Below the pieces are notes generated by a model. The model was not told the DNA's origin and made no database searches. It worked only from the letters and a program-made list of their open reading frames with translations. 64,000 bases of DNA from Chrysomallon squamiferum. Lineage: Eukaryota > Animalia > Mollusca. The translations under genes were made by a program, and so were the position numbers. Shown here piece by piece: positions 35,266-41,752 of this stretch (position 1 is the first letter of the stretch; the number at the start of each line of letters is the position of its first letter). The stretch lies in the NCBI GenBank assembly GCA_012295275.1, contig CM022670.1, forward strand, positions 15,686,001 to 15,750,000. The letters run 5' to 3'.

Positions 35266-38200
35266 ATGACTGGGAGGTGTGTAAGACTTGGGGTCAAATG
35301 TAAAGTTTGGCAACCCCTGGAGTCAGAGTGGATGTTTGCATCACAATGTATACAGAGAGAAGAAAAAGAGAGAATTGGGAATTTCGTATTCAAAAGGGAT
35401 GCCAAGTCAGCTCTGGTAAATTCAGAATTTTTATTTAATTCCTTTGTTAGTTACTTCAGGTACCAAACCATTTTAAGAAAATTCTGAGAACTGGCTACTT
35501 TTGAATTTGGTGTTCTGTCTAATGGCTGTAATGTACCACTTGGCCACTTTGTTTGGTTTCTGAATGCATTGCATCAAGTTTGATTGTTGTGTACAAATGA
35601 TTCTCTTAAGATTAGGCAAAGTGATTATTTGTTTCAGTTTATTATCACTTTCATTTATTACTATGTTTCAAAGGGTTTGCTTGTGGAAAGAGTATTCTAT
35701 ACAAGTATTTTAAGAATTTAAAATGCATTAATAAAAATGAACCTGAATCTGCTTTAGAATTGTATTAATCTGTATCTGTTAAATGCATTTTAATTCTTTA
35801 CCTTAATTGTATCCAGAAATATTGACCATGTCTGGCTCTAAGCTTGGTACCTGTACTTACAGTTGTTAGCACTTTAAGCTTTACCAAGCATTTTTTTTCT
35901 TTTTTTTCTATAAATTTTACAAATTCAGATACACTTAAGAAAATTTAACTGAATGCTATTTCTGTTTTTATTGTCTTTTCTTGTTTATTTTATATTTTAA
36001 CATTTTGTTGTAGAAAACAGTCTTTTACTTGTTTATAATATATAAAAAAAAAAAAAAAAAAAATTTATAAAATGTTTTGCCATATATATCCAGGCTTGTA
36101 CAATTTCTAAAAGGGTGAACTTAAAAACTGATAAATTTGTTTTTAAATTACATTACAGATTGGCAGACTTCTGATGCGAAAGGTCATAGCAGATATGACA
36201 GGAATTCCATATAAAGATATAATTATTGGCAGGACCGAGAAGGGGAAACCAGTTTTGAAAAATACTCTTCCTCAAGAACTTCTCAGTTTTAGTTTTAACC
36301 TTTCTCATCAAGGAGACTATGCTGTTGTGGCTGCTAATTCAGACAGACTTGTTGGTGTGGATATTATGAAGGTGGAACCCAGTGAGTATTAGTTTGTTCT
36401 CTAATGAAAATGACATTATTTATTCATTTTAGCTTTGTTTGTTTGGCCAAATAAAAATAAAGTCTGTGTGCATGCGTATTTTTATTTTTATTTTTATTTT
36501 TATTTTTATCATTGTTGTTGCTGTTTCATTCTAATGGCATATTTAATGTATTTGGAAAACATTGATCTAAATAATTGTGCAAATCGTGTAGACAAGTATC
36601 AGTTATAAAACAGGCCAACATTACTGTTGTTATCAGACATTTCATTTCTGTAATTAATTTATTTAAAAAATGATGAATAAAATACATTTTCCATTTTTAA
36701 CCCATTTGTGCATTAAAATGGAACATAAAATAGTCAGTATCCATGTGCTTCAACTACTTTGGTTATTAATTTATGAATGCTTAACTTAAAAAATACATTC
36801 ATATTTCATTTACCTTTGAACTTTTATCTGTGTTTGATTTCTTTTAATATGATTATACATGTTCTGTTTCTAAAAGTGTTATAAAACTTATGCCAAAAAT
36901 TGATAACTTGGGAAGATAGAGCTCCATCACCTTACACTGTAAAAATATTCTCACTGATCAAACAGTTTTTAGAAATTATTTTTATTATTTTTTAATATTA
37001 TTATTATTAATATTGTTATTATTATTTAAATAACAGTTTTCTTTAATGATATTTAAAACACAATAAGAATTCTGTTAACCACATAAAATGTAATAACTGT
37101 TATAATTTAGGATATTGTAAACTAATTGTTCTTTTATTGTGTCCCAGGAGGCAGGTCTATAGAAGAGTTTTTCAATACAATGAAAAGACAGTTAACTGAG
37201 CAGGAATGGCAGACAGTGAAACTCAGACTTCAGAAATGTTACAGCTGAAGATGTTTTACAGATACTGGGTAACTTCATTATCTTATATGAATAAATTAAA
37301 AGATGTGAAAACTTCAGTAAAGCTATTTTCCATTAAACAAAATTAAAATGTTCCTCTCTTCATTGTGACTTTGTATAATATTTTGAATTTTTGTATTGAG
37401 ATATTTCAGTGTATTTTGATTAGTACTACAAGAGTTTGACATCAAACATTATGCTGAAAACAATTTGATGCTTCAGTTTTCTAAATGCCAGAACTGAGTT
37501 TGATTAAGAAAGATATTTAATATTACTAGAATAAATAAATATTGAAAGCAGTCTATAGGCAAAGTATGACAATGGAGAATACAAATCACAAACTAACATT
37601 ATTGTATTTCAAAAAGCTGCAGATGACTGAAGTGGTTTAATTATATTTAGGTCCCAGGACTGACTTGAACAAAAAATAACTTTCTATAACAGTTTGCTAT
37701 AATTTTGAATATATTCTTTTTATGGTTTTCAGTGTTTGAAAGAAAGTCTAGTGAAGGCTTTGGGTATAGGAATTGGATTTGAAGTTGGACGTCTAGATTT
37801 TCATGTTCATACAACAGATGTGTCACCCAATCAGACTGTGTTAAGTTCTGTAGTGCACATTGATGGTCAGCTGAGTCAGGATTGGTCGTTTGAAGAATCA
37901 ATGATTGAAGATCACTGTGTTGCTGTAGCAGTAAAATCAACACCAGAACAACAAGTAATACTTAGTTTTTTAGATTTTTTTAAATTAATATTTTATTTCT
38001 TTCTAGCATCATAGAAAATATCCAGAACTACGTCCACAATAATTAATCCATTATTACTCCAGTCAAATCTTACAAATAACATCACTAGCTATATTGAAAT
38101 TATGGTTCATATTAAAATATAGGGGTTTCTTTTGTTTTTGTTTTTTATTAATTTATTTTTATTTTTTGTATGTGATGCCAAAATGGTTTATGCATGTTCT

Positions 38201-41200: not shown

Positions 41201-41752
41201 GTCCAGCAAGGCCAGAAGCACCACTTACAAATCAAATCAGACAACAACATAGTAGTCCCACTGAGCAACAACCTGTAAGAAATTACACAGGCATCTAAAT
41301 GTTAATTCCATGGCTTAAATGTCATTCATGTTTCCGTTTTTTTCAAATATTATTTCTTAACCGATGCTTGCTAAATACTTAAAACAGTAATCAGATTAAA
41401 AAATGATAACAACATTAAAATCTGTTAATGAAACTATTTTAAAATACATAGGTTAGTTCTTCCCTTCAATTGTGCTTTAAATTCAAAAGGTTTTTAACAA
41501 CATTAGTTGAGTGTAAATATTCAGATGTAGTTTATGCCCATCATATATTGACTATCAGTTGTATTTGCTTGTATAACTGTGTTAATTATAATGTGGATTG
41601 TTCTTTTTATACAGAAAAAAGATGGCCTGCAGTTTACCATTGTCACGGTGCAGGAGTTACTGAAGTTCTGTCAGCCATTACCTGGAATGGAACCTGATGT
41701 GGATTACTGGAATAAATTTCATTTAAAATCAGAAGAACCTACCAAAAGATGA
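35266..41752 (+). CDS. AASDHPPT: Sfp-type 4'-phosphopantetheinyl transferase (L-aminoadipate-semialdehyde dehydrogenase-PPTase), 5 exons, ~284 aa if a 1-nt deletion in exon 3 is corrected
   Basis: Exons 35266-35415 ([23 protein letters not shown]), 36159-36381 ([33 protein letters not shown]), 37148-37268 ([18 protein letters not shown] / frameshift / QLKMFYRYW), 37733-37954 ([13 protein letters not shown]), 41615-41752 ([40 protein letters not shown]). All junctions are GT-AG. PPTase motifs FNxSH, GVD and WxxKES are present. Confidence 0.92.
39086..41274 (+). CDS. PABPC: Partial cytoplasmic poly(A)-binding protein (RRM4 + Pro/Gln linker; no RRM1-3, no MLLE) nested in AASDHPPT intron 4
   Basis: Exons 39086-39238 ([51 protein letters not shown]), 39763-39966 ([62 protein letters not shown]), 40465-40642 and 41024-41274 (P/Q-rich). 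786 nt, open throughout, phases 0/0/1/0, GT-AG. Clear match to PABPC RRM4 with RNP2 LYVKNL and RNP1 KGFGFVCF. Confidence 0.88.

Follow-up and report, generated by a model that had tools for sequence, protein, structure and literature searches.

A 64,000-nucleotide (nt) stretch of the Chrysomallon squamiferum genome (assembly GCA_012295275.1, contig CM022670.1, forward-strand positions 15,686,001 to 15,750,000; hereafter the window, numbered from its first letter) contains a gene in which part of the poly(A)-binding protein PABPC is spliced into the middle of AASDHPPT, a phosphopantetheinyl transferase (PPTase) of the kind that activates fatty-acid-type synthases. The fusion is almost certainly real and under selection. 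On balance we favour the reading that this spliced chimera, common to the window and Gigantopelta aegis, carries a PABPC module in a loop of AASDHPPT, is predicted to be an active PPTase, and likely uses the module as a tether to poly(A)- or A/U-rich messenger ribonucleoproteins (mRNPs). The AASDHPPT coding exons are named A1 to A5 and the PABPC-derived cassette exons P1 to P4; percentages below are identities to G. aegis.

35266..35415, + strand: A1, AASDHPPT coding exon, with the start codon and the Arg47 equivalent; 72%
36159..36381, + strand: A2, AASDHPPT exon, with the Arg86, Ser110, His111, Gln112 and Asp129 equivalents; 88%
37148..37268, + strand: A3, AASDHPPT exon, 121 nt, one base short; 81%
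37733..37954, + strand: A4, AASDHPPT exon, with the Glu181 and Lys185 equivalents and a phase-0 donor joined to P1; 82%
39086..39238, + strand: P1, cassette exon, with the pre-RRM helix, RNP2 and helix 1; 90%
39763..39966, + strand: P2, cassette exon, with RNP1, helix 2, strand 4 and the PABP linker helix; 97%
40112..40139, + strand: 28-nt pseudo-exon in cassette intron 2, a P3 start joined to a P2 end; skipped
40465..40642, + strand: P3, cassette exon, Pro/Gln linker; 75%
41024..41274, + strand: P4, cassette exon, Pro/Gln linker, with a phase-0 donor to A5; 55%
41615..41752, + strand: A5, AASDHPPT terminal exon, with the 45-amino-acid (aa) C-terminal extension and stop codon; 73%

The cassette lies within AASDHPPT intron 4 and comprises 786 nt encoding 262 aa without a stop codon, entered and left in phase 0. 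AG/GT ends are present at every A1-A5 and P1-P4 border. The Pfam domain AASDHPPT_N matches A1-A2 and RRM_1 matches P1-P2, while the ACPS match on A4 scores 24.9 bits, slightly below the cut-off of 25. When full-length G. aegis PABPC is searched against the 64-kb window by tblastn, only P1-P4 match at E<1e-4, and no exons for RRM1-3 or MLLE are found; one further match has E=0.13. An earlier note, made from the sequence alone, had reported these exon coordinates, splice sites, phase-0 entry and exit and the stop-free 786-nt cassette, and had found no RRM1-3 or MLLE exons; the sequence and the tblastn search bear it out on each point. It overlooked the pseudo-exon, the likely newly recruited acceptor of P1, and a frameshift in A3, all of which are taken up below.

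Eleven sequencing runs are listed, nine of which contain the stretch, and four of the eleven, from two studies, were aligned to positions 39010-41795. Runs X8 and X9 are RNA, X6 has no recorded library type and contains spliced joints, and X1 is DNA-like and has none; segments of a run without coverage were not counted as evidence. The two RNA-recorded runs contain 0.27 of the stretch's words; the enzyme exons by themselves should account for about 0.14, and adding the cassette would bring this to about 0.24. The P1-P2, P2-P3 and P3-P4 joints occur in all three spliced runs, the P2-P3 joint bypassing the pseudo-exon. In the same three runs the loose end before P1 matches the last stretch of A4 (37921-37950), and the contigs hold 439-826 letters 5' of the P1 ATG. 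P4 is joined to A5 in two of the three, and record 20 of X9 is a single 1532-nt contig made up of the upstream part, P1-P4 and A5. Spliced contigs have a depth of 10-33; upstream of P1 the depth is nil. In X1, one 2450-nt DNA contig runs across 39590-41795, with the cassette adjoining A5. Separately, X6 and X9 contain low-depth (2-4) intronic contigs at 39229-39596, 40062-40494 and 41245-41601, attributable to pre-mRNA, intron retention or DNA carry-over, and X9 has a 20-nt deletion at 39420.

The earlier note had envisaged three products: the plain enzyme with the cassette skipped, the PPTase carrying the 262-aa insertion, and a 307-aa mini-PABP starting at the ATG at 39086. Only the second is seen. 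The junctions it proposed to count are used in all three spliced runs (37954 to 39086) and in two of the three (41274 to 41615). The skip junction from A4 to A5 (37954 to 41615) is listed in none of the three, nor is any loose end before A5, and the G. aegis matches include no cassette-skipped protein. The mini-PABP shows no sign of a separate 5' end, the sole listed loose end at P1 being A4 in every run. The fusion, rather than the skipped enzyme or the mini-PABP, is thus the main product seen. Cassette inclusion is not proven exclusive, and either of the other products may see minor use, since contigs drop rare forms. Because spliced contigs use every cassette junction and G. aegis carries the same fusion, the cassette is not a chance arrangement, and the proposal of a chimeric gene stands.

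The skipped pseudo-exon at 40112-40139 owes its origin to tandem duplication within intron 2 of the cassette (repeats 85% and 79% identical) and has both splice sites; its inclusion would shift the frame and lead to a stop 85 codons on. The duplication (39949-40480) is old and arose via a common 7-8-nt word, making the pseudo-exon a possible poison exon. At 41265-41283, the cassette ends four aligned residues before that of G. aegis, reflecting either a small in-frame loss or a donor shift at the end of P4.

A search with A4 returned 26 matches, one of which carries an RRM: G. aegis LOC121374296 (XP_041357277.1/XP_041357278.1), labelled 'uncharacterized' in RefSeq. This 559-aa protein contains ACPS, AASDHPPT_N and RRM_1, has the insertion at the same junctions, and is open through exon 3. 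No shorter or cassette-skipped G. aegis isoform was found among the 26 A4 matches or among the 120 listed of 200 short matches.

Between the two fusions, identity is 74/77 (96%) in the RRM4 core and 22/22 (100%) in the linker helix, falling to 90/144 (62%) in the Pro/Gln linker. The enzyme exons are 72-88% identical, below both the RRM4 core and the linker helix. Comparable conservation is found between the PABPCs of G. aegis and Haliotis (RRM4 core 96%, linker helix 95%). A second X1 contig (record 4) aligns to P2 across precisely the 204 nt of that exon, with 40 differences. The five of these that alter an amino acid, as assigned by hand, agree with G. aegis PABPC, and for this reason the contig is taken as the parent PABPC exon. 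Relative to this exon, 24 of 31 listed differences in P2 fall at third positions, 25-26 being silent and 5-6 residue-changing. The resulting ratio of non-synonymous to synonymous differences (pN/pS) is 0.06-0.07, a value that mixes the parent and cassette branches, covers 31 of the 40 differences and is drawn from saturated silent sites. Since both branches enter into it, selection is more cleanly judged by comparing the two fusions with each other. Selection had been supposed in the earlier note, and a comparison with PABPC proposed as a check for a dead duplicate; the pN/pS is far from that expectation, and the RRM4 core and helix exceed the enzyme exons in conservation. Misassembly and a dead duplicate were both considered and are rejected in view of the spliced joints, the G. 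aegis ortholog with the same junctions and neighbours, and the low pN/pS.

The changes the two cassettes share are unevenly placed. The two form a clade in a phylogenetic tree (100/100), with a long stem (0.53); its sister is G. aegis PABPC at 87/89, below the starred level. Seven residues shared by the fusions are rare among 48 PABPCs (occurrences in brackets): D242 (0), Y276 (0), A313 (1), S315 (3), I318 (3), H324 (1) and Q358 (0). Helices 1 and 2 and the loop following helix 2 contain five of these seven, as placed on a second AlphaFold2 (AF2) model whose informative range is residues 241-360. RNP1, RNP2 and strand 4 are unchanged relative to the parent, and 21 of 22 linker-helix residues match. 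RRMs contact RNA through their beta-sheet, and their helices lie on the back.

In human AASDHPPT the loop 248-263 is disordered in the structure (PMC2148441); the insertion maps to this loop, the length of which varies in 30 orthologs. Of the catalytic or CoA-binding residues, Arg47, Arg86, Ser110, His111, Gln112, Asp129, Glu181 and Lys185 were checked, and all have equivalents in the window exons (8/8). In the AF2 model of the G. aegis fusion, predicted local distance difference test (pLDDT) scores per block range from 83 to 99, mostly 86-99, across residues 1-240 and are about 98 in the tail (521-550); the model shows the two-domain fold at a root-mean-square deviation of 1.3-1.4 Å from human 2BYD and 2C43. 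Residues 1-556 of an Atlas model align to a plain 284-aa AASDHPPT with a template modelling (TM) score of 0.85. The C-terminal extension is kept and is predicted to fold back on the N-terminal domain (pLDDT about 98; TM 0.85 alignment). The fusion is accordingly predicted to retain PPTase activity.

A role for the module is suggested by the yeast homologue Pab1. The available text of PMC6547884 describes a Pab1-poly(A)-Pan2-Pan3 structure in which RRM4 and the linker helix pack on RRM1 of the next Pab1 and contact Pan3, and gives RRM3-4 as low-affinity RNA binders. RRM3-4 bind poly(A), untranslated-region and A/U-rich RNA, according to the accessible parts of a preprint (PMC13278162) and of PMC10546976. 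We therefore take an mRNP tether as the leading reading, because the part frozen in the fusion is the Pab1-interface unit of RRM4 plus linker helix. The RRM4-helix module would bind RNA weakly through RNP1 and RNP2, dock on RRM1 of PABPC, or both, the docking being modelled on the Pab1-Pab1 interface. The PPTase, annotated as the sole one in G. aegis, would thereby sit near translated or stored mRNAs. The action as an antagonist suggested in the earlier note finds no support.

Several points weigh against this reading. Besides the composite nature of the pN/pS value, the module has lost three basic residues (Lys+Arg 13, against 16 in the parent). The splicing evidence consists of contigs rather than reads, so that rare forms are dropped, 22 loose ends are unlisted and the tissues are unrecorded. 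X8 is without the P4-A5 joint, its contig stopping at 41271. Independent DNA contig support begins at 39590, leaving the A4-P1 interval outside it. A3 is 121 nt long where 3n+2 is needed, so that the assembled reading frame ends in a stop at codon 158; the aligned run region (39010-41795) excludes this exon.

If the A3 frameshift were real, it would block the 262-aa-insertion product in this animal. The break lies at a run of A near 37219-37222, where G. aegis reads through and the flanking residues are conserved. Seven AGs are listed near A3 as potential frame-repairing acceptors, none of which removes the break while keeping the coding of the exon. The frameshift in this assembly is very probably a sequence error. 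The contrary case, that the allele is null and its spliced fusion mRNA yields only a 157-aa stub, would account for the 121-nt exon, for which no nearby acceptor restores the frame and which lies outside the aligned run region, yet we consider it most improbable. The missing base falls in a run of A at a point where G. aegis is open, A4 (82%) and A5 (73%) are without decay, spliced contigs are recovered at a depth of 10-33, and G. aegis has a single annotated AASDHPPT. Moreover, near 40418-40420 X1 and X6 are both one base shorter than the window, an assembly indel relative to both runs. A real frameshift would also leave the mini-PABP as the only long frame downstream, and P1 starts with Met in four of four cassette-type sequences where the parent has Gln. 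That the selected product is this 307-aa protein, made from the ATG at 39086 by internal start or re-initiation and acting on poly(A) ribonucleoproteins (RNPs) with the enzyme fusion incidental, is nevertheless very unlikely: P1 is joined to A4 in all three spliced runs with no depth upstream of it, no short G. aegis product occurs among the 120 listed of 200 matches, and the enzyme exons after the break are as conserved as those before it.

Two other explanations accept the fusion and dispute the role of the module. The cassette could be a tolerated passenger, constitutive by chance in a permissive loop, with no binding role and with its RRM kept since misfolding would harm an essential enzyme. 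The variable, disordered insertion site, the drift of the Pro/Gln linker (62% between fusions) and the three lost basic residues all fit such a passenger. Folding constraint alone, though, should not freeze a surface helix, and at 96% and 100% identity the RRM core and the linker helix exceed the enzyme's 72-88% and match functional PABPC levels; in-frame loss is possible, yet the cassette is kept in two species and probably more. We regard a passenger as unlikely. The module could instead have been repurposed to bind a protein partner outside mRNPs through its remodelled helical face. This would explain the clustering, in helices 1 and 2 and the loop that follows, of fusion-shared changes seldom found in PABPCs (Y276 in 0 of 48), as well as the length of the stem leading to the cassettes (0.53). 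RNP1, RNP2 and strand 4 match the parent, and so do 21 of the 22 residues of the linker helix, as if ancestral RNA and PABP contacts were kept, which makes such repurposing distinctly unlikely.

The cassette retains traces of its origin in a PABPC gene. The borders of P2 are those of the parent-gene exon (X1 record 4), and two open reading frames (ORFs) of parent-type exons, P0342 and P0351, end at the 3' border of P1 and extend upstream through the RRM3-RRM4 linker. As these parent-type exons run through the start point of P1, its acceptor was likely newly recruited inside a parent exon. Because the P2 borders match the parent and the parent-type ORFs end at P1's 3' border, we propose that a DNA-level partial PABPC copy, introns included, landed in AASDHPPT intron 4. 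It would then have recruited a new phase-0 acceptor and become fixed as a mostly included cassette, after which its helical back face would have been altered, with the beta-sheet face and linker helix kept fixed. Retroposition was considered and rejected, given the three spliced introns inside the cassette. P1-P4 show the features of exon shuffling, namely equal-phase flanking introns, in-frame inclusion in mRNA, and donor intron positions kept at the P1 3' border and the P2 borders. In the available part of PMC2926785, intronic insertion of symmetric multi-exon modules accounts for less than 10% of high-confidence domain gains. Separately, the G. aegis annotation names three models PABPC4 and a further one 'Polyadenylate-binding protein 4' (PMC7895826 supplement 6); a single contig bears three of these four, and PABPC seems prone to local duplication in the G. 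aegis lineage.

The neighbours of the fusion in the window are as follows.

26072-26776, - strand: MRG-like frame of 234 codons, likely an exon of MSL3 given the synteny; its MRG match is weak and falls below the cut-off (E 0.0017)
44469-45683, - strand: MRPS9, Ribosomal_S9, a single uninterrupted 404-codon frame; syntenic with G. aegis
57625-63708, + strand: exons of glycine dehydrogenase (GDC-P); syntenic with G. aegis

The host annotation of G. aegis has one model named AASDHPPT, listed beside MSL3, ATP synthase epsilon, HAND2, MRPS9 and glycine dehydrogenase, and a PABP model is absent among the neighbouring rows (PMC7895826 supplement). The MRG-like ORF, MRPS9 and GLDC of the window follow a matching order. 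Since the neighbours match, we infer that the fusion sits at the ancestral AASDHPPT locus and is not a spare copy. The coding region of MRPS9 in the window is apparently intronless.

The cassette is probably kept in species beyond these two, judging from ORFs in ENA. P0305 is an A4-type exon with the same donor end, and P0320 and P0324 are P1-type exons with the same Met start; P0305 and P0320 each list a 738,406-nt contig, which we infer to be one shared contig. Because the Tyr276 change is missing from these cassette-type ORFs, they look like an earlier branch. The available text of PMC7895826 places the divergence of G. aegis from Dracogyra at about 40 million years ago (Ma) and from Chrysomallon at 116 Ma (71-184). 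Among 303 proteins examined, 43 match the enzyme, 261 match the RRM and one matches both. No further full-length fusion appears among 120 listed of 7885 matches, nor among the 120 listed of 200 short matches or ten Atlas rows. None is present in the best 150 of 44,970 representatives, a search that can miss fusions, the G. aegis fusion itself being absent there. A JGI metagenome scan returned two distant loci without an RRM match, which at 3.3-3.5 kb are short and carry little weight. Exact look-up of window ORFs found 0 of 10. Protein P0230 (489 aa) is a PPTase of two tandem full Sfp-type copies and has no relation to the AASDHPPT-PABPC fusion.

The two halves of the fusion each resemble a known protein. 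Like AASDHPPT and other Sfp-type (group II) PPTases (human 2BYD, 2C43, 2CG5; PMC2148441), it has the two-domain fold, the eight checked residues and the C-terminal extension; it differs in bearing a 262-274-aa PABPC insert before that extension, where 30 of 30 other aligned orthologs have a short loop. Relative to PABPC (G. aegis XP_041361083.1; yeast Pab1, 6R5K, PMC6547884), identity to the parent is 90-91% in the RRM4 core and 95% in the linker helix, RNP1 and RNP2 are intact, and the exon P2 borders are common to parent and cassette. Unlike PABPC, the cassette is without RRM1-3 and MLLE, has an altered helical face and a linker only 40-49% identical, and is embedded in an enzyme. Of the defining PABPC features, RRM4 with its helix is present, the G. 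aegis fusion has one RRM rather than four, and MLLE is absent: the cassette stops before the MLLE region, and PF00658 is not on protein P0001. A parallel is neuPABP/PABPC1L2, described in the accessible portion of PMC10546976 as a truncated PABPC derivative kept by selection in an altered role. That protein is intronless, stand-alone and has RRM1-2, whereas the cassette is the complementary half (RRM4 and linker), keeps its introns and is fused to an enzyme. In its symmetric phase (0-0), its several exons and its middle position, the insertion resembles cases in the part of PMC2926785 available; it differs from those in joining two housekeeping genes, with an apparently new 5' acceptor and no unfused host copy evident.

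In the retro-chimeras jingwei and TRIMCyp, a gene piece inserted in another gene's intron is spliced into a fusion protein, and the inserts are intronless. Here the cassette retains three introns, lies internally and leaves the C-terminus of the host in place. No description of an AASDHPPT-PABPC fusion was found in the literature searched, which left out most subscription journals, and the locus identifier gave no matches; the readable files of the scleritome proteomics supplement gave none for the enzyme. The process is known; the ACPS+RRM architecture appears to be undescribed.

Natural evolution has here grafted a module of mRNP assembly, apparently constitutively, onto a housekeeping metabolic enzyme that the G. 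aegis annotation lists as a single copy, and the RRM4 core and helix of the graft are conserved more tightly than the host enzyme. Comparing the enzyme with and without its cassette would bear on whether carrier-protein priming is coupled to translation and on what PABP RRM4 and its helix do alone. An association with symbiosis was weighed but is not put forward. The fusion is also a candidate molecular marker for a vent-snail clade. A bolder proposal, for now doubtful, is that a snail lineage replaced its sole PPTase with one able to engage the poly(A) RNP by means of the borrowed PABP oligomerisation module. If true, priming of fatty-acid, polyketide and peptide synthases would take place at the site of translation or under mRNP control, and a coenzyme A-using enzyme may cap PABP oligomers and influence deadenylation.

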